A DNA stretch of 48,865 bases from Rickettsiales bacterium (GTDB lineage Bacteria; Pseudomonadota; Alphaproteobacteria; Rickettsiales; SXRF01), in assembly GCA_005792635.1 (NCBI GenBank), contig SXRF01000091.1, forward strand, positions 1-48,865, in the 5' to 3' direction. A model generated the notes under the pieces. That model did not search any database. It had not been told where the DNA came from and worked only from the letters and a program-made list of their open reading frames with translations. The position numbers and the translations under genes are program-made. Shown one piece after another: positions 1-48,836 of the stretch (its first letter is position 1; each line of letters begins with the position of its first letter).

Positions 1-1014
1 ACAAATAATCAAATCAAACTCACCAAAGCCGTTTTTAATCAGCTCTTTTTGAGCGTTGGCAATAACCTCAATAGATTGGTAAGTGGAAAAAACTACAGTC
101 ATTCCGCTATTGCCATTGCTTTTTATTCTCTGGAATTGGTGCAAAATATCTTTGGTATTGGTGGAAGCTGGCAACGCCAAATCAACCACGCTGAAACCAT
201 CGCTATCATCATTTTTGGTTTTCTTTTTGGAAATTTCAGGGTCAGAACAAATGCAAATGGCATTGATTGGCTCGTTAGCGTCTGATGACCATTCACGCAA
301 AGTTTGCCCCAATAACGCAATAGATGGCACTAAAAACAAAACAAGTCCTTTACCACCAGTTTCATTTTCGGCAATGCGGAGCGAATTAAATGTTTTTCCA
401 GTTCCGCACGCCATAATTAGCTTGCCTCTATCTGCAATCTTAAAATGTTCGTGGGTTTTTTCTAATGATTCTTTTTGATGCGCTCGCAGCGTTTTCTTTG
501 GATTTCGTGAGGCTTCACCATGAACCCCATTATCCAACTTTTCCCAATCAACAGGGGCAGCTTGTAAATCTGATAGATTTATTCTTTGCACTGGTGGGTG
601 CTGGTTTCTAATTGCTTCCTCTGCATTGCCACCCCATTTATCAGTGGTGGAAATCCAAAGGCGATTGGAAAATCTAGATGTTTTTAATTCTTCGTTCCTA
701 AATTCTCGGCTGGAAGTGGATAGAAAACTATCAACAGCAGGTTTATCAATGCTGGAAGTTTCCAGAAAACATTTACACTGTATTGCCCAATAATCACCAT
801 CATAAGTGCGAGCAACTAAATCAATACCAGTATCACCACCACCCAAATCATCTTTTCCATGAAATTCGCTCCACAACCAAACATTTTTTAGCTTATTGGC
901 ATAAATAGGGTCAGTGAGTAAATAAGCCTGCATCAGTCTTTCAAAGCGGTTGCCTTTATCACGCTCTGAAAATGAGATTTTACGATATTTTTCTAGGATT
1001 TTATTGAAACTCAT
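1..1014 (-). CDS. Type ISP restriction-modification enzyme (Mrr-like nuclease + SF2 helicase N-terminal part), runs off the window edge
   Basis: Not in ORF track; read manually from ATG at 1014: MSFNKILEKYRKISFSERDKGNRFERLMQAYL...DTGIDLVART...YWAIQCKC (Mrr-type PD-QxK nuclease motif), Walker A RGKLIMACGTGKTF near 390-430, and FDLIIC (just before Walker B) at base 1. Matches LlaGI/LlaBIII-type architecture; MTase/TRD part would be outside the window. Confidence 0.85.
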   Translation of the reverse strand, partial: MSFNKILEKYRKISFSERDKGNRFERLMQAYLLTDPIYANKLKNVWLWSEFHGKDDLGGGDTGIDLVARTYDGDYWAIQCKCFLETSSIDKPAVDSFLSTSSREFRNEELKTSRFSNRLWISTTDKWGGNAEEAIRNQHPPVQRINLSDLQAAPVDWEKLDNGVHGEASRNPKKTLRAHQKESLEKTHEHFKIADRGKLIMACGTGKTFNSLRIAENETGGKGLVLFLVPSIALLGQTLREWSSDANEPINAICICSDPEISKKKTKNDDSDGFSVVDLALPASTNTKDILHQFQRIKSNGNSGMTVVFSTYQSIEVIANAQKELIKNGFGEFDLIIC

Positions 1015-1217
1015 TTGCTGCCTTGTGTAATTTATATTTAAATATCATTTATAGATGGCAAAACTCTATTCTCTGCATTGTTAAATGGCAATAGATATGC
1101 TGTAGCAAACTGTAATTCTATTGTGCAATACAGCCAAAATATATAAAGGGGTGTAAAAAACCACACTTTTCAATAATCAACATTTACAGGATATTACAAA
1201 ACAAGAAGTGTAAAAAA

Positions 1218-1748
1218 CTATACCTTGTTAGTGGTAGATTTTACACCTGTTGAGTGGAGGTTTCTACAATCAGAATTAAAATTTAAGCGTTTTACTTTTT
1301 TGTTTTTCAGTTTCTCAATCTCCGCATCTGTTATCATTCGCCAATCATTACTAGGCTCACTATACATTTTAACACCTTTCTCATTGTGAAAACTATGTGG
1401 CAAAAAAGTTAGCTTGAAACAGGTGCAATAATTCTTGTTTCTGGCTTGCCTGCCTTTGCGTTCTGCAATCACCAACCCTAGATTTTCAGCTTCCTGTATG
1501 GTTTTGTTAATGCAATTTCTGGCAATGCCGAATTGTTCAAGCTGATTGTATGTAGCAAGCAAATTGCCATTTTCCATGCCTTTATGTGCCATGTGTTCTA
1601 ACATCAAAAAATCCAGTAATTTACTGCATGATATTGACTTCGCTCGCCAAGATGGCGAATTCATCAATTCAAAAGTTATTTGCACAAATGGTTCGTCCTT
1701 TGGCACGGCACTCACTTGTGCTAATAATGTGCTGGTTTTTTTACTCAT
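1218..1748 (-). CDS. Winged-helix DNA-binding protein, possible island replication protein
   Basis: 176 aa; NGNLLATYNQLEQFGIARNCINKTIQEAENLGLV wHTH-like pattern typical of small integrative elements. Confidence 0.5.
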   Translation of the reverse strand: MSKKTSTLLAQVSAVPKDEPFVQITFELMNSPSWRAKSISCSKLLDFLMLEHMAHKGMENGNLLATYNQLEQFGIARNCINKTIQEAENLGLVIAERKGRQARNKNYCTCFKLTFLPHSFHNEKGVKMYSEPSNDWRMITDAEIEKLKNKKVKRLNFNSDCRNLHSTGVKSTTNKV

Positions 1749-1806
1749 TTTGAAAATCCAAATAAATTAGGTGGGGTAGTGTTGACCACCCCACTAATGG
1801 TTTTTG

Positions 1807-2013
1807 CTAATTACTGGATTTTAGGTTTTGGTTTTCCAACCATTGCAAAAAAGAATTTTCTGAAATTAGGATTTTCTTGCCAACTCGGCGCAAGCATTTT
1901 GAAAAACCATTTTTATCAGAAAATATCCACGAGCGAACCCCACCTTGCGGAAAGGCAGGGTATTTTTCAGAAAGCTGTTTTACTGTTAAGTAAATTGTTC
2001 GTTGTGTAGTCAT
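1807..2013 (-). CDS. Excisionase/AlpA-like DNA-binding protein
   Basis: 68 aa basic protein; YLTVKQL...VRSW...RRVGKKILI...FLQWL MerR/Xis-type pattern; lies downstream of integrase. Confidence 0.7.
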   Translation of the reverse strand: MTTQRTIYLTVKQLSEKYPAFPQGGVRSWIFSDKNGFSKCLRRVGKKILISENSFLQWLENQNLKSSN

Positions 2014-2130
2014 TTGCGTTATTCCTTATTGTTAAACAAATACCAAGCGTTCTTGGTAATAAGAAATATGACGCTACAATTATCATTAAAAACAATAATG
2101 TTTATTTAATGATAATAATGTTTGTAGGGA

Positions 2131-3063
2131 TTAAAGCCTCTTTCCTAAAAACATTTTTTTAGGAATTATATTTTTAATAGCCTCTATAGTGTATGTTTCT
2201 CCTATATTTCCAGCGTATTGTCGTAAGTAAGTTAACTCATCATCCCATTTAGAATGCAATAAATTTTCTTTTGCTCGCCTATCAAATTCTTTGAGAATTT
2301 CTGTTTTGCATCCACGCTTGTTTTTTGGATTGGGCATTAATTTCTCATATCCCATTATTTGCATCAGTAAGGTAGGGAATTTATAATTTCTAATTTCAGC
2401 CCATTTTATTATATCATCAGGCTTAAATCTTCTTTCAATATGAGAATGACAATCAACCTCTATATAATCTATTGCCTTGTTCATTATGCTTTGTTTTAGT
2501 TCTGAAATTATTTCTTTAGTTGAATAACAATCATGCGGTAATGCACATTTCATTAAATCATAGCTCTCATAAGTAGCTCTTCTACACAGCAAGGCAACCA
2601 CATCGTCAAATGCCCATGCTTCTTTATAAGCCCATTTAGTGTAATACTGGTATATCTTACTGTTATTCGTAGGAGTTATATCTATATTGTTCTTTTTTAG
2701 ATAACCCCATATTGCCACAGATTTTAATATCCCCTCATCTACAAACCATTTTATCCAATCAAGTGGTTTTTCTAAGGATTTATTATTCACTTCGTATCTA
2801 TGACTATAATTTTCTAGCACTTCATTTATGAAGTCTGATTTTGTATAAACATCTATATTATAACAACCTGTTGTGCATATAGGAATAAACTGGTCAATGT
2901 AGAATCCATCGCACCATTTGTAATCTTGGAATTTATCATTAGGGCAAATATCACACAGTAACAAAGCAGCTTGCTTAAAATCCCATTTGGGTTGCAGAAA
3001 CCAATAGTTATAATCTATGCCTGTGTTTTCTGTTAGTGCGTATTTTTGTTCACCAAATATCAT
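2131..3063 (-). CDS. Hypothetical protein with two internal repeats, coupled to island integrase
   Basis: 310 aa, AT-rich; ATGA overlap with integrase stop; repeated W-x5-W-x6-LLC motif. Confidence 0.7.
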   Translation of the reverse strand: MIFGEQKYALTENTGIDYNYWFLQPKWDFKQAALLLCDICPNDKFQDYKWCDGFYIDQFIPICTTGCYNIDVYTKSDFINEVLENYSHRYEVNNKSLEKPLDWIKWFVDEGILKSVAIWGYLKKNNIDITPTNNSKIYQYYTKWAYKEAWAFDDVVALLCRRATYESYDLMKCALPHDCYSTKEIISELKQSIMNKAIDYIEVDCHSHIERRFKPDDIIKWAEIRNYKFPTLLMQIMGYEKLMPNPKNKRGCKTEILKEFDRRAKENLLHSKWDDELTYLRQYAGNIGETYTIEAIKNIIPKKMFLGKRL

Positions 3064-4127
3064 CCAAAAATCCTTTCATTCATGCTGGCTACAACCTTGC
3101 TAGTGTGGGCTTCGGAAAGGTGGGCGTAGCGTTTCACCATTTGCAGGGTTTTATGCCCTAAAACCTCCGCTATTTCGGCAAGGCTTGCGCCATTCATAGC
3201 AAGATAACTCGCTGCACTGTGGCGTAAATCATGGAAACGAAAATCTTTTATTTCTGCCTTTTCCAGTGCGTCATTCCATGGTTTGCGTATGTCAAAATGT
3301 TGTTCTTTTATATTGGTGTTGGCATGAGGGAATAACAGGTTGGTATCAATACGGCGGATTTTGCTTAACTTCTTTATTTCTTCAAGTGCAAGCCCTGCCA
3401 GTGGCACTCTTCGGCGTTCACCATTTTTGGTTTCATGCAAAATAATATATTGCTTATCTAGATTTATATCATCCCAGCTTATGCCCAGTATTTCACCTTG
3501 TCGCATACCAGTGGATAATGCCAAAACTACTACAGGATATAGATATTCGGAGGATGATTCTTGGCAAACAGTTAGTAATGCTTTGCGTTCATCATCTGAT
3601 AGGAAGCGAACCCGCCCCCTTGGTTCTTTTGATTTTGACACTTTCCGCATGGGGCTATCTTCAAGCCAACCCCACTCATTGGTTGCGATAGTGAAAGCGT
3701 GACTGATTGCAGCTAGATAACGATTAACTGTTGCTGGCGAGTATTTTTTATTAAATCTGGTTTTTTCTTTGGCTAGCTTATCCCGATATTCAGCAATTAG
3801 GGCAGGGGTTATATCCACAAGAAAGTAATCACCTATTGCTTCTTTCCACCAATTAAGCTGGCTGGATTGCTTGTCTTTGCTTTTTGGCTTCGCTGGCAAA
3901 ACATCATCAATATAGCGTTCAATCAATTCTTTTAGTGTTCGCTTCTTTGATTCTGTGTTTTTGAAATAACGCCTATCCTTTATTGCGCCCTCCGTTATTT
4001 TCGCCCAGTCTTTAGCATCCGTAATGCGTGAAAAAGTAGCTGTTTGAGTTGGAAAGCCCTTGATGCGGATTTTTACCCGATAGGATATTTTACCATCTGG
4101 TGCTGTGCGTTTTTCTATATTTGCCAT
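3060..4127 (-). CDS. Tyrosine integrase of the island (Rci/HP1-like family)
   Basis: Catalytic R (LSTGMRQGEI), K (ETKN), HDLRH, LGH, Y (KRYAH); N-terminal arm-binding domain. Confidence 0.95.
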   Translation of the reverse strand: MANIEKRTAPDGKISYRVKIRIKGFPTQTATFSRITDAKDWAKITEGAIKDRRYFKNTESKKRTLKELIERYIDDVLPAKPKSKDKQSSQLNWWKEAIGDYFLVDITPALIAEYRDKLAKEKTRFNKKYSPATVNRYLAAISHAFTIATNEWGWLEDSPMRKVSKSKEPRGRVRFLSDDERKALLTVCQESSSEYLYPVVVLALSTGMRQGEILGISWDDINLDKQYIILHETKNGERRRVPLAGLALEEIKKLSKIRRIDTNLLFPHANTNIKEQHFDIRKPWNDALEKAEIKDFRFHDLRHSAASYLAMNGASLAEIAEVLGHKTLQMVKRYAHLSEAHTSKVVASMNERIFG

Positions 4128-4260
4128 AAATTGCCCCTCTTAATTGCTGAAGTGAAGCTACAACAACCAGCAATAAATAGCAATAGGTGATAAGTAATCC
4201 CATGAATATATTTTGTAATCACCTGTAATATATAAAGTAAATTACTATATTATTGTTCTG

Positions 4261-4365
4261 TGGGGCAGTTATGGGGCAAAACTATTTCAAAAGGGCAGTT
4301 TCGGTTGGTTCTATAATTGTCAATTATCGTGGATTGTTTTTAATTATTGCCCCACCAGTGCCCCA
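4261..4365. repeat. Putative integrase arm-type sites of the island
   Basis: TGGGGCA at 4261 and 4272; inverted TGCCCCA at 4348 and 4359; each pair 11 bp apart, between integrase and att core. Confidence 0.6.
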
Positions 4366-4413
4366 GAAGGGGTTAAATAATAGGGAGTTTAACTCATAAC
4401 CAATTGAAAAATA

Positions 4414-4458
4414 TGGTGGCTCGGGGGTGATTTGAACACCCGACCAAGGGATTATGAT
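4414..4458 (-). repeat. att site: displaced 3' half of tRNA-Met (junction between island and prophage)
   Basis: 42/45 identical to 42038-42082; identity ends at the 5' edge of the anticodon loop. Confidence 0.95.
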
Positions 4459-4515
4459 AGGGTGAAATTGCACCGCATTTTATGCTTGTAAAGTAAATTG
4501 TTACAAAGTGCAAGC

Positions 4516-4587
4516 TGTACTATAAAATGAGAAAAATAAAAATTTTAACTGCTTGAATTTTATAAACATTGATTTTCATTATAGTAC
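4516..4587. repeat. Putative prophage integrase arm-type sites (TATAGTAC)
   Basis: TGTACTATA 4516-4524 and TATAGTAC 4580-4587; the same motif occurs at the other prophage end (TATAGTACA 41974-41982, TATTGGTACA 41992-42001). Confidence 0.55.
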
Positions 4588-4655
4588 GGATTTTAGAGCT
4601 AAATAAATATAAAGCATGTTCAAAATAGGTGTAAAATTGGATGTGTTTTAGCTGC

Positions 4656-4684
4656 TTGCAATTACCCCCGCCAACAGCTACTCT
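4656..4684 (+). promoter_or_regulatory. sigma70-type promoter for the C4-like RNA
   Basis: TTGCAA-17 bp-TACTCT, ending 6 nt before the first hairpin of the structured RNA. Confidence 0.65.
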
Positions 4685-4690
4685 TATAGC

Positions 4691-4845
4691 AAGGTTTAGT
4701 CACCTTACATAAAGCGTTTGGCATCCGCGACATGGATGCCGTCTTTGGTTTTACGACCAGATGGCGGTGTTATGTCCAATGTTAAACCATTTGGGGAAAC
4801 TAAAAGCATCGCAGCTGTCTTTATGCAGTTGACTAAACATCTGGT
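4691..4845 (+). ncRNA. C4-like antisense RNA with upstream a1/b1 sites
   Basis: a1 hairpin AAGGT-ttagtc-ACCTT (4691-4706), b1 CATAAAG (4708-4714). Three-way junction: CCAATGTT/AACATCTGG (4776-4783/4836-4844), TTTGG-ggaaa-CTAAA, CAGCTG-tctttatg-CAGTTG. Exposed b' CTTTATG (4819-4825) and a' TGACTAAAC (4830-4838) are complementary to b1/a1, as in P1/P7 C4 RNA. Confidence 0.75.
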
Positions 4846-4853
4846 CACCACCA

Positions 4854-5675
4854 TTACAGAAAAGTCGGCTGTCGGCGTGTAAGTAGTTGGTTTGAAATAA
4901 GCAACTCCTCAAATTTCTGATTTTTTCCTATTCCATAGTTGGTGCTAACTTCTTCCATACAAAAATCGGCAAAAATTTCGCGCACTTGCGGTTTATCGTT
5001 TAGCGATAGTATGAATTTGCCACTGATTTTTGTTAATTGCTCGGCTAATTTCACGAAATCTTCGCGCTCAAACATATTTTTGCCGTAATCATCCTCGCAG
5101 CCATAATATGGCGGATCTAGATAGAACAGCGTGTCCGCGCCGTCATAACGCGTGATAAAATCGCTGTAGTGCAAATTTTCAATGGTAACTTCGGCAAGCC
5201 GTTCGTGGAGTTTTTCAATATGGGTTCGCAACTGGCGAATGTTAAAGCGGGATTTTCCAGTCCTATCTACGGCAAAAGAGGTGCTGCCAACTTTTCCGCT
5301 AAAGCCACAATGCTGGAGATAATAAAACCGTGCAGCGCGTTGAATATCGGTGAGGGTTTCTGGTGGAGTATTGAGGAAGGTGTTGAAAATCCTCCGTCCC
5401 GCCAGCGAAAAACGAAGTTCATCCAGCAATGCGCGGTAATGTCGCTGAATTATTCGGAAAAAGTTCACAACCTCCCCAGAATAATCATTGATAACTTCGC
5501 ATGGAGCAGCCGAACGACGGCGAAGAAATAGCCCACCCATGCCTATAAATGGCTCGGCATAACATTGATGTGGGATAGGTTCGATGCGCTCAATAATGCG
5601 CTCGGCTAGGTTTTTCTTGCCACCGAGATATGGTGCAGCACCAGAAAGTGGGGCAACAGGCTTGTGATTATCCAT
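4854..5675 (-). CDS. DNA adenine methyltransferase (D12 class, Dam-like)
   Basis: YLGGK, EPFIGMG (motif I), INDY, YLDPPY (motif IV); orphan MTase at the end of the late operon. Confidence 0.95.
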   Translation of the reverse strand: MDNHKPVAPLSGAAPYLGGKKNLAERIIERIEPIPHQCYAEPFIGMGGLFLRRRSAAPCEVINDYSGEVVNFFRIIQRHYRALLDELRFSLAGRRIFNTFLNTPPETLTDIQRAARFYYLQHCGFSGKVGSTSFAVDRTGKSRFNIRQLRTHIEKLHERLAEVTIENLHYSDFITRYDGADTLFYLDPPYYGCEDDYGKNMFEREDFVKLAEQLTKISGKFILSLNDKPQVREIFADFCMEEVSTNYGIGKNQKFEELLISNQLLTRRQPTFL

Positions 5676-5689
5676 AAAAACGCTCCATC

Positions 5690-5746
5690 AAAAATAAACG
5701 CGCCGTATCGTGGCTGGAAAACGCTTTATGGCGGCTGACTAAAGCC
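5690..5746 (-). promoter_or_regulatory. a2/b2 target of the C4-like RNA in the MTase leader, followed by a small hairpin and U-rich run
   Basis: Minus strand reads GGCT-ttagtc-AGCC-gc-CATAAAGCGTTT...GCC-acgatac-GGC-gcg-TTTATTTTT; same loop and b box as a1/b1 at 4691-4719. Confidence 0.7.
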
Positions 5747-6003
5747 TATTTGCAATGCTTATCAATTTCTTGTTGTTGGGTGGCTATTTTGTCTAGGTAA
5801 TCATGCACTGCATCGGAGAAATTTCCGCCGCGCACCCAGTCTTTCACTGATTTTTCCGCGTGGATGCGCGGTGGGCAGTAACCAGAATTTTGCGGCTGCT
5901 CACAACTGGTCAGCGAGATCAGCAAGATTACGCCGAGGCTTGGTAAAAGCTTGCGCTGTTTCTTTGCTATCTGCCAACTGCTTCTTAAGTTTTTCATTTT
6001 CAT
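5746..6003 (-). CDS. o-spanin (Rz1-like lipoprotein)
   Basis: Hydrophobic stretch plus lipobox LTSC; CPP motif; overlaps i-spanin downstream of endolysin; start uncertain. Confidence 0.7.
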   Translation of the reverse strand: MKMKNLRSSWQIAKKQRKLLPSLGVILLISLTSCEQPQNSGYCPPRIHAEKSVKDWVRGGNFSDAVHDYLDKIATQQQEIDKHCK

Positions 6004-6124
6004 AGCGTAATAGCTCCGCTTCTGCTGCCTTTGCTGATAGTTGGCTTAAATATCGCCAGAGGGCGAAGGCGCAAGCAACTGCGCCAACGCCTAAACCCCC
6101 AGCAACTAAGATTAGCCAGCTCAT
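5900..6124 (-). CDS. i-spanin (Rz-like)
   Basis: N-terminal TM helix plus coiled coil; in lysis cassette. Confidence 0.7.
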   Translation of the reverse strand: MSWLILVAGGLGVGAVACAFALWRYLSQLSAKAAEAELLRYENEKLKKQLADSKETAQAFTKPRRNLADLADQL

Positions 6125-28733: not shown

Positions 28734-29222
28734 TTATTTTTGTTCTGGAATTTTGAAATGTTTTGCCAGCCTATTCAATCCATCTTGCAACAATGTATTC
28801 CTTCTTTTTTTACCAACTGCCACATCAATATATTTTGCCCATTCACCAATGCAAACGACATTATAAACAATCAGGCGGGTGACAACTGGTAGCTCCTTCA
28901 TTGCTATATTGTATTTTTCCTCCATCTGCTCTCTTGCTTCATAGTTAGGCTCTCCGCGAGGCTGGCGTGGGTCACGCACAGTTACATAGCCCGACTTCTC
29001 TGCGCCATAATACCACAAGCTATACAGTGTATTTGCTGCATCATATTGGTGTGATTTTATTAAACCGCGGTTATGATAATACTCAATCGGACATGTAGTC
29101 CTGTTGAACGCTACTCGGTGATTAGGCTCTATCTCAACACGCTCAACTACCTGCTGTTTATGAAACTCTGGTGTTCCGTAGTCTTTGCTGTCTTTTTTTA
29201 TTGTTTGTCTAGCTTTTTGCAT
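28734..29222 (-). CDS. Putative late transcription regulator (Q-position)
   Basis: RGLI...QYDAA, VVCIGE, LQDGLNRLAKHF C-terminal HTH; last early gene before late operon. Confidence 0.6.
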   Translation of the reverse strand: MQKARQTIKKDSKDYGTPEFHKQQVVERVEIEPNHRVAFNRTTCPIEYYHNRGLIKSHQYDAANTLYSLWYYGAEKSGYVTVRDPRQPRGEPNYEAREQMEEKYNIAMKELPVVTRLIVYNVVCIGEWAKYIDVAVGKKRRNTLLQDGLNRLAKHFKIPEQK

Positions 29223-30288
29223 TGGCAGAATCTCCTGTTGGCTGGGTGATGGGGAAAAATTTTGCGGTCATATCCGCGACAACTCCTGCGGTATGTGTTT
29301 TAGAAAGATGCGCGTATCGCTGCACCATCGCGGCAGATTTATGACCGAGTGCCGCGCCAATGTCGGCGGTTGTTCCGCCATTCATGGCGACATAGCTGGC
29401 AAAAGTGTGACGAAGGTCGTGAAAGTGGAAATTATTTATCTTGGCGCGAGCGAGCGCGGTGCGCCATTCTTTCTCAATATCAACTGGTAGGTTTCCAAAA
29501 CGCGAAGGAAAAACATAGTCGCTTTTCGGGTGACGCTTATGTTGTTTAAGCATTTCTAGGGCAACGCCCGTTATGAATAATGGACGGCGTTCATTGTTTT
29601 TGGATTCCTGCACTGTGGCGATGCCTCGTTCGAAATCAACATCCTGCCATTTTAGCGAAAGTATTTCCATTTTCCGCGCACCTGTGGAAAGTGCCAGCAT
29701 CACGATAAGTTCAAGCGGTTTGTGTTTTTCCAGCCGCACGGCACGAAGTAGTGCTTCGCGTTCAGCATCAGAAAGAAAGCGCACGCGCCCGCGGCTTTCT
29801 TTCAGCTTTTCCAGCCGCGCAATAGGTGATTGCTCCAGCCATGCCCAGACTTTTATGGCAGTGGTGAAGACATGGCTTAAAGCTGCCATATAGCGATTAG
29901 CGGTGGCATGGCTTACATTTTCCAGCAACTCATCGCGCTGTTTGGCAAGCAGCGCGGGCGTAACATGACTGAGGCGATATTCGCCAATTCGTGCCCACCA
30001 CCAGTTTAGTTGAGTTTCTTGCTGTTTTGTATAGCGCAGCTTTCGCGATTTATTCGGCATAACTGTTTTTAGATAATTGGCTATCATCTCACCAACCGAA
30101 TGCTGGTCGGCAGAATTGGTGAGCTGATATTTTCCGCTATTTATTTCCGTCTCTTTTTTGGCTGCCCATTCTCGCGCTTCGGTGAGGGTGTCAAATGTAG
30201 CCTTGATTGGCTTGAACCCCGCTCGGCGGACACTGGCGCGAAACCGCTTTCTTCCTTTCGGCGTGACGCGCTTTTCAAATGTTGCCAT
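29209..30288 (-). CDS. Second, internal tyrosine recombinase (same family as island integrase)
   Basis: LSTGARKMEI, ESKN, HDLRH, LGH, QRYAH all intact; GGAGG RBS. Confidence 0.93.
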   Translation of the reverse strand: MATFEKRVTPKGRKRFRASVRRAGFKPIKATFDTLTEAREWAAKKETEINSGKYQLTNSADQHSVGEMIANYLKTVMPNKSRKLRYTKQQETQLNWWWARIGEYRLSHVTPALLAKQRDELLENVSHATANRYMAALSHVFTTAIKVWAWLEQSPIARLEKLKESRGRVRFLSDAEREALLRAVRLEKHKPLELIVMLALSTGARKMEILSLKWQDVDFERGIATVQESKNNERRPLFITGVALEMLKQHKRHPKSDYVFPSRFGNLPVDIEKEWRTALARAKINNFHFHDLRHTFASYVAMNGGTTADIGAALGHKSAAMVQRYAHLSKTHTAGVVADMTAKFFPITQPTGDSANAKS

Positions 30289-35451: not shown

Positions 35452-36096
35452 ATGAAAACAATTCTAAGTCGCGAACAAAAAATAGATTTTATCCAACAAC
35501 GCATGAAAGAGCTTGGGCTTAATCAGCGTAGCGTTGCGCTGTCAGCTGGTCTTCACGAAGATGCGTTACGCAATTTTTTTCGTGGCAAAAGCAAAAATCT
35601 ACGCTCTGATATTTACGAAAAGCTTATGGATGTTTTGCAGCCAAATGAGGAAGTTGTTTTACATTCTCATAAAGGAGAAGAAGAAACCACTCGTATCCCT
35701 GTTTATGACATAAGGGCATCAGCAGGCGGTGGAGTGGTAATTCAAGAAGAAAATATCCTTTATCACACGACATTTAGTTTGGATTTTTTACGGCGGGTGA
35801 GCAGTTCTCCACTGGAAATGCTGTCAGTGATTACTGTGGATGGTGATAGTATGCAGCCCACATTATCACCAGAAGATACTGTGTTGATTGACCGCTCGCA
35901 AATCACTCCCAAAAAAGATGGCATTTATGTTTTGCGTTATGATAATTCTTTGTTGGTAAAGCGTTTAAGCTATGACCCGCAACGGCGCATAGTGACAATT
36001 ATCAGTGATAATGACCGCTACCCACCGCGTGATATTAGCGATCTAGATTGCTTACAAATAATTGGCAGAGTTTTATGGTTAGGGCGCAGGGTATAG
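35452..36096 (+). CDS. CI-like repressor (HTH + S24 autopeptidase)
   Basis: HTH, ASAGGG cleavage site, GDSMQP, LVKRL. Confidence 0.95.
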   Translation: MKTILSREQKIDFIQQRMKELGLNQRSVALSAGLHEDALRNFFRGKSKNLRSDIYEKLMDVLQPNEEVVLHSHKGEEETTRIPVYDIRASAGGGVVIQEENILYHTTFSLDFLRRVSSSPLEMLSVITVDGDSMQPTLSPEDTVLIDRSQITPKKDGIYVLRYDNSLLVKRLSYDPQRRIVTIISDNDRYPPRDISDLDCLQIIGRVLWLGRRV

Positions 36097-36121
36097 GAAA
36101 CCTAAATAATCGAGGTGAATA

Positions 36122-36967
36122 ATGTCAGAAAATGAAAAATTGATTGTGTTTAACCAAAAATCAATCCGTCGCATTTTGCATAAAAATAAATGGTGGTTTT
36201 CAGTAATTGATGTTGTCGGAGCTTTAACGGATAGTATTGATGCTGGGGCGTATTGGCGCAAGCTAAAACAGCGTCTAAACGAGGAAGAAAGTGAGGTCGT
36301 GACATTTTGTCACGGACTGAAACTAGAAGCATCGGATGGGAAAAAATATGTTACCGATTGCGCCAATACCGAGTCACTTTTTCGCATAATTCAATCAATC
36401 CCTTCTCCCAAAGCTGAGCCTTTTAAGCAATGGTTAGCAAAAGTTGGGTATGAGAGAATCCAAGAAATAGAAGACCCAGAACTAGCAAGTAAGAGAGCAA
36501 AGGCTTTATATAAAGCCAAAGGTTATAGTGAGGATTGGATAGAAAAACGGATGCGGAGCATCGCCATTCGTGAAGAACTTACCGATGAGTGGAAAAATAG
36601 AGGTGTAAAGGAGAGCAAGGAGTTTTCTATACTCACCGCCGAAATTTCCAAAGCAGCGTTTGGAATGCCTCCTTCTGAGTATAAAAAGCATAAAAACCTA
36701 AAGCGAGAAAATCTGCGTGATCATATGAATGATTTAGAGCTAATTTTTTCAATGCTTGGTGAAGCCTCAACCACCGAAATCACTCGCAACAAAGATGCAA
36801 AAGGTTTTCGTGAAAATTATCAAGCTGCACAAGAAGGTGGCAGCATTGCAGGTAATGCCCGCAAGGAGCTTGAAACTAAAAGCGGTCGCCCTGTAATCAG
36901 CAAACAAAATTATTTGCCAAAAACTAAAGGCAAAAGATTGGTAAAAAAACGAGAGGAATTAAAATAG
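36122..36967 (+). CDS. Bro-N domain protein
   Basis: WWFSVIDVV, YWRKLKQRL, RIIQSIPSPKAEPFKQWLA, NLRDHM. Confidence 0.85.
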   Translation: MSENEKLIVFNQKSIRRILHKNKWWFSVIDVVGALTDSIDAGAYWRKLKQRLNEEESEVVTFCHGLKLEASDGKKYVTDCANTESLFRIIQSIPSPKAEPFKQWLAKVGYERIQEIEDPELASKRAKALYKAKGYSEDWIEKRMRSIAIREELTDEWKNRGVKESKEFSILTAEISKAAFGMPPSEYKKHKNLKRENLRDHMNDLELIFSMLGEASTTEITRNKDAKGFRENYQAAQEGGSIAGNARKELETKSGRPVISKQNYLPKTKGKRLVKKREELK

Positions 36968-40915: not shown

Positions 40916-41968
40916 ATGCCAAAACCCCGCAATAGTGAAAATAAAGGGCTGCCAGTTCGCTGGAAAAAGGCACATGGAGCATATTATTACAATGTTCCTG
41001 TTGGACTTGAGGCGTTATGGGATGGCAAAAAACTTTTTCGCCTTGGGAAAACCCTGCCAGAAGCCTATAAAGAATGGGCAAAGCGGTTAGAAAATTTGGA
41101 TAAAGCCAATACTATTGCACAGTTGCTTGACCGCTATTCATTGGAGGTGATACCCACGAAAGCTATTGCAACTCAAAGCGGAAACGTCCGTGAGATTAAA
41201 AATTTACGAGCGGTTTTTGGACACATGGCACTTACTGCAATTCAGCCACAGGATATTTATAAATATGCCGATAAGCGTGGGGCAAAAAATAGAGGCAGAA
41301 AAGAAATAGCCCTGTTGAGCCACGCATTTACCAAAGCCGTGGAATGGGGATATATCAATCGCCACCCCTTCAAAGGTGAAGTCCGTCTGCAAATTGGAAA
41401 ACCGCGCACCCGCTATATTGAGGATTGGGAATTAAACGAAGCACTATTACTTTCCGCCCCAAAAGAAAAGGGTGGGGTGGCAATGGTGCAAGCATATATC
41501 CAACTCAAACTGATGCTGGGATTGCGTCAGGGAGATATGTTAAGGCTGAAAGAGGCTGATATTCAGGAAGATGGGATTCATGTTACGCCAAATAAAACCA
41601 AAAACAGCACGGGAAAATCTATAATTTACGAATGGAGCGATGATTTACGCCTCGCTGTTGAAAAAGTCAGATCCACCCGCCCACCAGATATTTCAAAATG
41701 GTTATTCTGCGACCGCTTTGGCAAATGCTACATCAACGAAGAAACAGGCAAGGCTGAGGGGTGGTCTTCTATATGGCAAAGATTTATGGAAAGGGTGCTT
41801 GCTGAAACCAAGGTTAAAGATCGTTTTACTGAGCATGATTTACGAGCAAAAGTCGCCAGTGATGCAGTGGATGTTGAGCGGGCGAGGGAATTATTATCAC
41901 ACTCAGACAGTAAAATTACTGAGCGAGTTTATCGCCGAAAAGCAATCATAATTAAGCCGTCAAAATAA
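40916..41968 (+). CDS. int: Prophage tyrosine integrase
   Basis: GLRQGD, NKT, HDLRAK, LSH, RVYRR; adjacent to att/tRNA. Confidence 0.95.
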   Translation: MPKPRNSENKGLPVRWKKAHGAYYYNVPVGLEALWDGKKLFRLGKTLPEAYKEWAKRLENLDKANTIAQLLDRYSLEVIPTKAIATQSGNVREIKNLRAVFGHMALTAIQPQDIYKYADKRGAKNRGRKEIALLSHAFTKAVEWGYINRHPFKGEVRLQIGKPRTRYIEDWELNEALLLSAPKEKGGVAMVQAYIQLKLMLGLRQGDMLRLKEADIQEDGIHVTPNKTKNSTGKSIIYEWSDDLRLAVEKVRSTRPPDISKWLFCDRFGKCYINEETGKAEGWSSIWQRFMERVLAETKVKDRFTEHDLRAKVASDAVDVERARELLSHSDSKITERVYRRKAIIIKPSK

Positions 41969-42037
41969 AATTCTATAGTACACTGCCCTATTATTGGTAC
42001 ATAGATAAAAATAGAACCCTCTAAAACTGTTAAAATA

Positions 42038-42112
42038 TGGTGGCTCGAGGGGGATTTGAACCCCCGACCAAGGGATTATGATTCCCCTGCTCTACCACTG
42101 AGCTACCGAGCC
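42038..42112 (-). tRNA. tRNA-Met(CAT), probably elongator; contains prophage att
   Basis: GGCTCGGTAGCTCAGTGGTAGAGCAGGGGAATCATAATCCCTTGGTCGGGGGTTCAAATCCCCCTCGAGCCACCA folds as a cloverleaf; G1-C72 pair excludes fMet; Ile2 not fully excluded. Confidence 0.93.
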
Positions 42113-46557: not shown

Positions 46558-48645
46558 TTAAAATCCGTAAGCAAGACCAACTGTAAGCCTAGTCGCTGGG
46601 TCTTCGGTTTTACCGATACCCCCACTAAATTCCGCGCTGACCTTTGCGGCATCGGACATGCTCCACACTGCGCCAACCGCTCCTTCTCCCCAATTATCAT
46701 CACCAGATTTTGGGTTGAATTGTTGCGTAAGACCAATAGTAGTTGCGGTTATGCTGCCACCATCGCCATTGATTTTATGTCCCCAAGCTGTGCGACCGTG
46801 AAGCTGTAAATTAGCGATTGGCGAATGAGCAATCTCAACACCAACTCTGGAAGTTAAAATGTGATTTTGCTGGTCGGTATATGAGGCGGGAAATGCGCCA
46901 CCAGTTTCGGCATAAGCATCCATGTCGGTTTGTGACCATTGCAGTTCGCCGTATGGCATAATTGAGCTGTTGTTGGCAAGCGCAAAAGAATAGCCGCCGC
47001 GACCAGCTAGCCCATAGCCCATCCCGCTAGTTTCGCCGTGTGAGCTGTCAATTCCGCTTCCGTTTTCATAATTTCTGTCGGTGCTGGTATCCAAATAAAC
47101 CGCCATTGCCGTGCCGTATAAGCGCGTTCCTGATGCTGGTTCGTAAGCCACGACAGCCGAGCCACCCGATGCTATCACACTGCTATTGCCATCATAAGCC
47201 AAGCGCGAACTGCTGCCACCGCCAATAATTCCGCCGCCAATTGCTAAATCTTCGCCCGCCCGCGCCACCAAGCCCACTGTGCCGTTTAATCCATAGTTGT
47301 TGAAATTATTGTCTTGCCCAGCCGCCAGTGTTCCCACCAAATATCCAGCATATTTATGCTGTTCTGGAAACGCGACACTGCCAGCCGCTGGTTCATAATC
47401 AGACATGGTTTGTGGCGTTGCGGCTGCTACTTGTTTTGGCGTGGATGGCGAGCCAAAGGACGACAAAGCCTGCCCAGCCGCGAACATAGACTGCCCAACC
47501 CCATTGCTGGCAATCGCTTGCCCTTGTTGCGAAGGAACACTGGCTTCGCTGAGCGATCTCGCTAAATTTGCTGGCGTTGTAACACCAGCAGATGCACCAA
47601 ACGAGGCGATGAACGCTTCTTGCTGCGCGTTATGAGTTCCCGTGCCAACAATTATATTCCCATCGCTGCTTGCCCCATTGGCGGTGTCCAATGTCCAGCC
47701 AGTTAGATTAACTCCTCCTGCCGTCAATACGGTTTCCAGTGACTCCATGCCACCAGCTTGCGTCCAGCGAATTGCTTTACCAACCGATCCATCATCAGCC
47801 ACCCCAACTACAACGCTACCATCAGCACTCACCGCATTGGCATTGCTATAGCTACCACCAGTAAGTATTCCTAAGCTGACCATGCCTCCACCCTGTGTCC
47901 AGCGAAAAGCTTTTTCACTAGAGCCGTCATCACCATATCCAACCACAACGCTACCATCAGAACTTATACCAGTTGCGAGGCTATAATTTCCACCAGCCAG
48001 TATTCCCAAGCTGACCATGCCTCCGCCTTGTGTCCAGTGAAAAGCTCTGCTATTAGTTGACGCATCGTTTGCCTCTCCAACTACTACACTACCATCCGCG
48101 CTTACTGCATTACCAATACTATAATTTCCACCAGCCAGTATTCCCAAGCTGACCATACCTCCGCCCTGTGTCCAGCGAAAAGCCCTTGTGCCACCAGCAG
48201 ATCCAGACCGTCCGACAACTACACTGCCATCTGCATTTACACCATGTGCCAAGCTAAAAGTTCCGCCAGCAAGCGTTCCTAAATTTTCCATACCACCAGC
48301 TTGTGTCCAGCGGAATGCCCTATTGTTAGTTGCTCCAGTGGCATTCCCAACGATTACGCTGCCATCTGCGCTTGCAGCGCGGGCAATACTTGTATTGGCT
48401 ATCGCACCTGCTAGGAAGCCTAAACTTTCAATTCCACCAGACTCTGTCCAGCGGAATGCTGCCACATCAAAATTGGAATCTTCTGCCTCTCCAAATACTG
48501 TGCTGCCGTCGGAGCTTATTCCGTTGGCGCGGCTATAAGTTCCTCCAGTTAATAAACCAGTTCCATCAAGCGTTAGCGGATCAGCGAATGCAGCAGTAGA
48601 AAGGCAGGTGGTGACAGTGAAAAAAGCAATGCTTGATAAGCGCAT
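46558..48645 (-). CDS. Autotransporter with HAF-type extracellular repeats
   Basis: Signal peptide, about seven S-x-A-xx-VSADGSVVVG...AFRWTQ repeats, beta-barrel ending LAYGF. Confidence 0.85.
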   Translation of the reverse strand: MRLSSIAFFTVTTCLSTAAFADPLTLDGTGLLTGGTYSRANGISSDGSTVFGEAEDSNFDVAAFRWTESGGIESLGFLAGAIANTSIARAASADGSVIVGNATGATNNRAFRWTQAGGMENLGTLAGGTFSLAHGVNADGSVVVGRSGSAGGTRAFRWTQGGGMVSLGILAGGNYSIGNAVSADGSVVVGEANDASTNSRAFHWTQGGGMVSLGILAGGNYSLATGISSDGSVVVGYGDDGSSEKAFRWTQGGGMVSLGILTGGSYSNANAVSADGSVVVGVADDGSVGKAIRWTQAGGMESLETVLTAGGVNLTGWTLDTANGASSDGNIIVGTGTHNAQQEAFIASFGASAGVTTPANLARSLSEASVPSQQGQAIASNGVGQSMFAAGQALSSFGSPSTPKQVAAATPQTMSDYEPAAGSVAFPEQHKYAGYLVGTLAAGQDNNFNNYGLNGTVGLVARAGEDLAIGGGIIGGGSSSRLAYDGNSSVIASGGSAVVAYEPASGTRLYGTAMAVYLDTSTDRNYENGSGIDSSHGETSGMGYGLAGRGGYSFALANNSSIMPYGELQWSQTDMDAYAETGGAFPASYTDQQNHILTSRVGVEIAHSPIANLQLHGRTAWGHKINGDGGSITATTIGLTQQFNPKSGDDNWGEGAVGAVWSMSDAAKVSAEFSGGIGKTEDPATRLTVGLAYGF

Positions 48646-48836
48646 AAAATTCCCTAAATAACTCAATATCATCTGCCTATGACATATAATATTTAAGGAA
48701 TGATTAAAAAAAGATGGTTCAAGTCAAGGAATTGCACAATTGTTTTTGCAAATCTATTGTTGCATTTTGTGTGGCAGTGCATTAGAACGCCATATCTGAA
48801 ATACGCTTGGATTTGGTTTTGGGGTTGATTTTCTGG

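Follow-up and report, generated by a model that had tools for sequence, protein, structure and literature searches.

A stretch of 48,865 nucleotides (nt) from a Rickettsiales bacterium (contig SXRF01000091.1, positions 1 to 48,865 of the forward strand; "the window" below means this whole stretch) contains a 37.6-kb prophage (4459-42031), at one end of which a structured RNA and a DNA methyltransferase (methylase or MTase) gene lie tail to tail on opposite strands. Sequence comparison leads us to describe this RNA as a C4-type RNA, related to the small RNA (sRNA) family sRNA-Xcc1, that is new in two respects: its target co-evolves with it and lies in the leader of an orphan methylase gene convergent to it, and RNA and gene move as a unit between phages. 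C4-type RNAs are immunity devices which hold back antirepressors. We propose that the prophage end holds a cassette in which the convergent C4-type antisense RNA gates a Dam-family methylase through the methylase leader, with repression as the likelier sign of control, and we put the chance of this proposal being right at a little below even. Two short words in the RNA, a' and b', are matched by the words a1 and b1 upstream of it on the same strand and by a second pair, a2 and b2, at the 5' end of the methylase leader (words in Table 1, coordinates in Table 2).

In the window the double word TTAGTC-N3-12-CATAAAG is present three times for an expectation of 0.02, a count reached by none of 100 shuffles, and the whole 1.95-Mb genome also holds three occurrences (reversed control: 0): a1b1, a2b2 and, in antisense, a'b'. 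A relaxed form of the word gave eight matches genome-wide versus 27 in the control, nothing above background, and a genome-wide RNAduplex scan with the stretch from helix 3 to a' as probe was uninformative, being dominated by duplexes that require the RNA's own stems to be open. In viral contigs the exact word was met in 14 stretches, all of them single coding-type matches without a nearby RNA, which we ascribe to chance; the conserved word of the leader hairpin was met in five, one of them real (L146, already known) and the other four unrelated. A single-protein search of viral contigs with the methylase found no relatives.

Methylase homologues were examined at 81 loci (64 genome contigs, 8 metagenomes and 9 viral contigs), and the link to the RNA is rare but consistent: the RNA stands beside the methylase in four of the 81, all with methylases 73-79% identical, and in none of the 77 at 57% identity or below. 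The MTase-linked loci amount to four independent ones, namely the window, L121, L058 (the same as L129 and L146, which are one viral contig, matching L058 in the stretches compared) and L057 (the same as L022 and L026). All four have a leader starting with the a2 hairpin and b2, and a methylase stop about 6-9 nt from the closing stem of the RNA; a2, b2 and the small leader hairpin that follows them are kept, and the stretch from this hairpin to the ATG is variable. Because a1 and a2 have unlike hairpin stems at any one locus, neither can be a recent copy of the other.

Table 1. Pairing words at the four independent MTase-linked loci
Locus	a'	a1	a2	b'	b1	b2
Window	GACUAA	TTAGTC	TTAGTC	CUUUAUG	CATAAAG	CATAAAG
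L121	GACUAA	TTAGTC	CTAGTC	CUUUAUG	TATAAAG	CATAAAG
L058	GACUAA	CTAGTC	CTAGTC	CUUUAUG	CATAAAG	CATAAAG
L057	GAUUAA	TTAATC	TTAATC	CUUUUUG	CAAAAAG	CAAAGAG

The most diverged locus in Table 1, L057, shows a concerted change at one a position and one b position in all three partners, and its b2 has one further change which is G-U-compatible with b'; because of G-U pairing its RNA-leader pair scores 7 and 5. When 31 RNAs were combined with the four leaders, none of the 124 non-cognate combinations matched both words at 6 nt or more, compared with nine of nine combinations within a class. The second a/b target that the initial annotation had read in the methylase leader is thereby upheld, being present at all four independent loci, changing with a' and b' at one of them and having no non-cognate match, and the covariation of a'/b' with leader sites in homologous loci, by which that reading was to be checked, was found as matching sites at four of four loci and as the concerted change in L057. 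On these comparisons we regard pairing of the RNA with the methylase leader as well supported, and the RNA very probably controls the methylase.

The window and L121 are homologous at the nucleotide level over 4688-5752, the window and L146 over 4697-5741. These limits fall on the a1 and a2 hairpins, which lie in inverted orientation to each other; RNA plus methylase therefore make up a discrete 1.1-kb cassette (4656-5746). The carriers are different phages: that of the window has a J-like tail tip protein and an amidase, L026 a lysozyme-type endolysin, and L146 a baseplate wedge and, past the RNA, a HicB-like gene and an integrase. In each carrier the cassette comes after the lysis genes and faces the attachment/integrase end. 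Judged by these boundaries and carriers, the cassette moves as an intact unit between unrelated phages.

The RNA itself folds as a three-way junction with a predicted energy of -31 kcal/mol on the plus strand (z -2.8), against -22.4 kcal/mol (z -0.7) on the minus strand, and in the fold of the 170-nt precursor a1 and b1 pair with a' and b' (z -4.5). We call it C4-type by architecture because it shares its topology, and the positions of a', b', a1 and b1, with C4 of phage P1; the C4 architecture with upstream a1/b1 which the initial annotation had described stands, a hairpin loop holding b', the junction holding a' and a1/b1 matching throughout the family, and the RNA, a1, b1, the methylase, a2 and b2 were all found where it had placed them. 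A protein-coding reading of the small open reading frames (ORFs) over the RNA (4718-4882 plus, 4705-4854 minus and 4751-4912 minus) was rejected, as they have no PHROG match and the stems covary as RNA. The hairpin between b1 and the RNA is also present at this position in relatives, from which the T-run is absent. No gene follows the RNA on the plus strand at this locus.

Membership in the Rfam families C4 or c4-a1b1, for which a covariance-model search had been suggested, did not hold up. The C4, c4-2 and c4-a1b1 models gave no match at E<=10 in 4300-6100 and none in the whole genome either (E<=1 for C4); as positive control, the same search recovered P1 c4 at 68.8 bits and the P1 a1b1 element at 51 bits (gathering cut-offs: C4, RF01695, 45 bits; c4-a1b1, RF03163, 46.7 bits; sRNA-Xcc1, RF02221, 53 bits). 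The nearest and only matching Rfam model is sRNA-Xcc1, which covers the RNA over its full length (1-87/87) at 29.4 bits, below its cut-off (E 0.014 in the region search, 0.0037 genome-wide). Architecture thus makes the RNA C4-type and sequence makes it a divergent relative of sRNA-Xcc1, and its scores place it in neither Rfam model. Of seven sRNA-Xcc1 matches in the genome, one passes the cut-off with 55 bits. RNAs matching sRNA-Xcc1, at two places in G000 (C85:21823-21906, plus; C68:2017-2100, minus) and at the 33 loci of the family alignment A3 (below), have upstream a1/b1 words complementary to their own junction and helix-3 loop, and one of these RNAs is above the Rfam cut-off. In Rfam, C4 and c4-a1b1 share clan CL00128 and sRNA-Xcc1 has no clan; from their common architecture, the sRNA-Xcc1 and C4 families look like one class.

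Built on the window RNA alone, a covariance model picked up four relatives within the taxonomic family, and the five-sequence model then built found the RNA family in 68 of 151 sampled genomes of the order, a single genome holding up to 14 copies. Genomes G076, G105, G148, G112 and G116 have 9-14 copies each, many on short contigs, which suggests arrays or many mobile elements. None of 20 sampled family loci reached the cut-off of any Rfam RNA, and 18 of the 20 had sub-threshold sRNA-Xcc1 matches of 30-46 bits. In the family alignment (A3, 33 aligned loci), 97.7% of cells are paired and 19 of the 23 pairs have compensatory changes; none of 500 shuffles paired as highly, and slid controls gave 38-51%. 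Frequent G-U pairs in A3 fix the strand of the RNA. The helix-3 loop and the junction are hypervariable across the 33 loci, of which 32 have their own upstream a1 matching a' and 28 their own b1 matching b' (cross-locus controls: 15% and 7%). The family-derived model R2 placed P1 c4 correctly at 8.9 bits (E 0.055), a match too weak for a claim of homology. BLAST with the RNA region gave only an 81-nt piece of the MTase in the phage set and no match in 43 other genomes of the taxonomic family.

Downstream a/b sites were in no excess family-wide (4/32 and 7/32, against 15-16% across loci), and genome-wide G021 and G043 have no further site apart from a1b1 and the self-antisense, with G037 at background; ordinary members having no second a/b site nearby or genome-wide (G021, G043), the word "rewired" chosen for the window RNA in the initial annotation is fair. 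Ordinary members (L021-L056) have a terminator-like hairpin 5-60 nt past the RNA, in which the tail CACCAGC pairs with a GCTGGTG further down that precedes a T-run; a ribosome-binding site (RBS) comes next, and then small ORFs of highly varied kinds (lipoproteins, membrane peptides, helix-turn-helix proteins). The MTase-linked members are without the hairpin. In L055 a P1-like a2/b2 word (TTGATAACAAAGA) lies on the strand of the RNA, 22 nt beyond it, and the close relative L054 keeps a2 only; because of L055, the classical cis layout exists in the family, if rarely.

In the mechanism that we propose, the precursor would start near 4691 and be trimmed to about 95 nt. Its 5' end would probably be cut by RNase P, because the closing stem and the RCCA tail, which directly follows that stem at 31 of the 33 family loci, mimic the acceptor end of a tRNA; 5' maturation of P1 C4 is reportedly carried out by RNase P, and in the window family it is only the acceptor-like stem and RCCA that speak for such a step. 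The mature RNA would pair in trans with a2/b2 on the late transcript and so gate methylase synthesis. In the lysogen, the RNA would be in excess over stray late transcripts and the methylase would be kept off. During lytic growth, strong late transcription would run through the methylase gene into the RNA gene, since there is no room for a terminator, collide with the RNA promoter and yield a perfect antisense of the RNA, and with the RNA outnumbered late the methylase would be made in time to mark progeny DNA. Because b2 ends 48 nt before the ATG, the effect would not be simple occlusion of the ribosome site, and the RNA may act via leader structure, cleavage or mRNA stability. Repression is in our analysis the more likely sign, with which the tail-to-tail layout agrees, as overrunning late transcripts would lower RNA synthesis and soak up the RNA. 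As precedents we take P1 C4, described as repressing icd/ant, and sRNA-Xcc1, whose position upstream of the toxin gene symE in Xanthomonas cassettes is a precedent for repressing a nearby harmful gene.

Several observations weigh against this proposal. The four MTase-linked loci fall into two specificity classes only, so the three-way covariation rests on one diverged locus (L057). The candidate promoter before a1 is below the detection of the promoter scan and weak by consensus; hexamer pairs at a spacing of about 17 nt occupy the same place in L121 (TTGCCA/TAATCT) and L058 (TTGCAG/TATGGT), with different spacer sequences. Unlike in P1, b2 lies far from the RBS, and leader folds pair a2/b2 with the start-codon region. 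With a2/b2 blocked in silico, the accessibility of the start codon rises from 0.01 to 0.48, from 0.20 to 0.47 and from 0.38 to 0.78 at three loci, and goes from 0.47 to 0.53 at the fourth, a modelled result which hints at activation in three of the four, contrary to the methylase being kept off in the lysogen, as the initial annotation supposed. The leader fold of the window is no more stable than shuffles (z 0.07), and the consensus fold of the four leaders has almost no covariation term.

The same pairing might accordingly have the opposite sign: as long as the leader is free, its start region would be closed by b2 and part of a2, and the RNA would free the AUG and switch methylase translation on. 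It would then work by an anti-antisense mechanism, reportedly also used by IsrK-type RNAs for activation. The minimum free energy fold of the window leader pairs CCAUAAAGCG with CGUUUUUAUGG, the helix between the a2/b2 region and the start region is kept in the consensus fold of the four leaders, and the opening of the start codon by the a2/b2 block in three of four loci is equalled by just 0-13% of shifted control blocks. The helix is partly trivial, however, CAUA and UAUG being self-complementary; the responsive loci, three in number, have a homologous leader in common and are not independent, L057 is without effect, and the leader fold is matched in stability by shuffles. An activator gene that is overrun, and whose product is made double-stranded, by the transcript of its own target would also be an awkward design. 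Given the homologous leaders, the shuffle-like fold and the trivial CAUA/UAUG complement, the evidence for activation is weak, and we keep it as a serious rival that is unlikely to be the correct sign.

The other explanations take the leader site away from methylase control. It could be a neutral relic of a duplication or inversion of an a1b1 element, with the RNA acting, if at all, only through convergent antisense overlap; the layout of the leader, with a in a hairpin loop followed by b and a hairpin, is that of the a1b1 element, and this likeness suggests common descent. A relic would hardly have kept its words at four loci whose MTases are 73-79% identical and whose leaders have diverged in their 3' parts, nor would its words have changed in step with the RNA in L057, and we consider this improbable. 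Slightly more improbable is a sponge, in which late a2/b2 transcripts and the 3' antisense would titrate the RNA and release another target of the lysis-lysogeny decision: a1/b1 is already a cis decoy in the precursor fold, and a Bro-N protein, of a gene kind reportedly controlled by C4-type RNAs, stands beside the S24 repressor, against which it counts that there is no third-party site (the exact word is present three times in the genome and relaxed matches are below control), that nothing was found near 36100 and that the site travels with the MTase, not with immunity genes. Least probable of all is a role of a1b1 and a2b2 as DNA, as imperfect inverted repeats of about 30 bp that form the ends of a mobile cassette or protein sites, the match to the RNA loop following from a1b1's own role, because, although inter-phage homology ends exactly at both hairpins and the sites are inverted, functional units likewise end where homology ends, the cassette has no recombinase and by eye no target duplication, the a1 and a2 stems differ within a locus with only the RNA-pairing words kept, and 31 of 33 family members have a1b1 without an inverted partner.

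Among known systems, sRNA-Xcc1 is alike in its closing stem, two hairpins and CACC tail and aligns end to end with the window RNA. In the literature, sRNA-Xcc1 is described as first found in a Xanthomonas integron cassette, as riding mobile elements, often in several copies, and as a trans-acting sRNA with direct targets not known, encoded on the strand of the symE or ORF6N genes that follow it; it has so far been treated there as a virulence-linked sRNA with a mechanism not known. The window RNA is also on a mobile element; it differs in its score (29.4 bits against a cut-off of 53) and in the convergent orientation of its methylase partner. The literature searched mentions neither a1/b1 sites nor a methylase partner for sRNA-Xcc1, and no link between C4, sRNA-Xcc1 or isrK and a DNA methyltransferase.

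Like the window RNA, P1/P7 C4 (RF01695) exposes b' in its second hairpin's loop and a' in the 3' junction and has an RCC tail, and in P1 a1 lies in a hairpin loop with b1 just after it, upstream on the same transcript (a1 48255-61, b1 48269-76 and c4 48343-48419 in the P1 GenBank record); in both, the words vary among relatives and the scaffold is kept. The two differ in the second site, since P1 a2/b2 follow c4 on the same transcript, with b2 ending 10 nt before icd, whereas a2/b2 of the window are on a convergent transcript with b2 48 nt before the ATG, and in the gene putatively controlled, which is a methylase and not an antirepressor. A trans reading of a C4-type RNA is already in print for the c4 of phage APSE, whose a' and b' reportedly match predicted distant sites, one at the 3' end of a DNA polymerase gene and one upstream of a BRO-N gene; these sites are not in the leader of a convergent gene, and the passage that describes them reports no covariation. 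Antisense RNAs of restriction-modification (R-M) systems share with the window RNA an RNA-level control of DNA methylase expression, which for the window is proposed. Those of R-M operons are plain cis-antisense transcripts that control methylase expression, whereas the window RNA is a structured C4-type RNA with separate a and b words, and its methylase is an orphan in a phage late operon.

If the proposal is true, C4-type RNAs would have a new job in timing an epigenetic enzyme which the lysogen may not tolerate, or which virion DNA needs against restriction, and their action would here be obligately in trans, on a separate convergent transcript and not in their own operon. The widespread sRNA-Xcc1 family would be tied to the C4 mechanism, by which its function becomes directly testable, and the cassette would offer a compact test system of 1.1 kb with one RNA, one gene and two short words. 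Tentatively, and with rather less than an even chance that both parts hold, we suggest a self-contained and mobile "RNA-locked methylase", in which the RNA would grip the mRNA at a2/b2 and at the 3' read-through antisense and the enzyme would be made only once late transcription outruns the RNA, and in addition that the sRNA-Xcc1 family consists of C4-type RNAs with a cis a1/b1 decoy and a private two-word address.

Table 2. Features of the RNA-methylase cassette and its prophage, in window coordinates
Feature	Position	Strand	Remarks
Prophage-end repeat, 51 nt	4408-4458	-	partner 42032-42082; 48/51 bases identical
Putative sigma-70 promoter of RNA precursor	4656-4684	+	TTGCAA-17 nt-TACTCT; read from sequence
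a1 hairpin	4691-4706	+	AAGGT / loop TTAGTC (4696-4701) / ACCTT
b1 CATAAAG	4708-4714	+	just 3' of a1 hairpin
9-bp hairpin, then TCTTTGGTTT	4719-4741	+	between b1 and RNA; called terminator-like by terminator scan
C4-type / sRNA-Xcc1-like RNA	4755-4852	+	three-way-junction fold; core 4755-4846
RNA closing stem	4755-4763 with 4838-4846	+	from fold
RNA helix 2 (long)	4764-4812	+	from fold
RNA helix 3	4813-4830	+	loop holds b' CUUUAUG, 4819-4825
a' GACUAA	4831-4836	+	single-stranded in 3' junction; from fold
RNA tail ACCACC	4847-4852	+	after closing stem
D12-class (Dam-family) N6-adenine DNA methyltransferase, 273 aa	4854-5675	-	PF02086 94.9 bits (cut-off 22)
MTase leader, 70 nt	5676-5745	-	between upstream ORF stop and MTase start
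MTase RBS GGAG	5686-5683	-	in leader, before ATG
Small leader hairpin GCC-ACGATAC-GGC	5714-5702	-	after b2
b2 CATAAAG	5730-5724	-	GC spacer after a2 hairpin; CGTTT after b2
a2 hairpin GGCT / TTAGTC / AGCC	5746-5733	-	leader 5' end
Upstream ORF, 85 aa	5746-6003	-	no family match; stop TAG 5748-5746 overlaps a2 stem; outside cassette
S24 repressor	35452-36096		far end of prophage
Prophage integrase	40916-41968	+	far end of prophage

The methylase is an orphan enzyme in a phage late operon. It matches phrog_56 at E 5e-81 and TIGR00571 "dam" at 94.4 bits, under the cut-off of 114.85, and its translation contains LDPPYYG, that is, a DPPY catalytic motif. It is the last gene of the tail-lysis operon, convergent with the RNA, and its stop is 8 nt from the RNA closing stem; the minus-strand prophage genes encode a tail tip protein, a tail fibre, an amidase endolysin and small lysis ORFs, with the methylase last. 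Two details of the initial annotation had to be given up here. Termination near 5690 at the small leader hairpin and its U-run is not borne out, as the U-run is present in the window and not conserved in relatives, and a terminator or attenuator in the leader was rejected, with no minus-strand terminator-like site in the scan and a stem of 3-4 bp. The label "spanin" for the ORF directly upstream of the leader finds no family match, and only the neighbouring ORF 5900-6124 is weakly Rz-like (E 0.0013).

The 51-nt repeat that bounds the prophage is a copy of the 3' part of a tRNA at 42041-42112, and the RNA cassette begins about 200 nt inside the prophage, measured from the repeat at 4408-4458. 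To the left of this repeat (window 1-4458) lies a different integrative element, which abuts the prophage at the tRNA-derived repeat and has an integrase at 3060-4127 (minus). Its ORF 1-1014, which runs off the window, has Mrr_cat_2 nuclease and ResIII helicase domains and fits the N-terminal half of a Type ISP R-M enzyme, in agreement with the initial annotation; it sits in a separate integrative element, outside the prophage repeat. Within the prophage, a Bro-N domain protein is encoded at 36122-36967 (plus) directly after the S24 repressor gene, with no a/b word near, and a tyrosine-recombinase ORF (no. 3, Phage_integrase and Int_N domains) lies at 29209-30288 (minus), between the early genes and the terminase. 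On the right side of the tRNA, host DNA holds a 704-aa ORF with an autotransporter beta-domain (46558-48672, minus).

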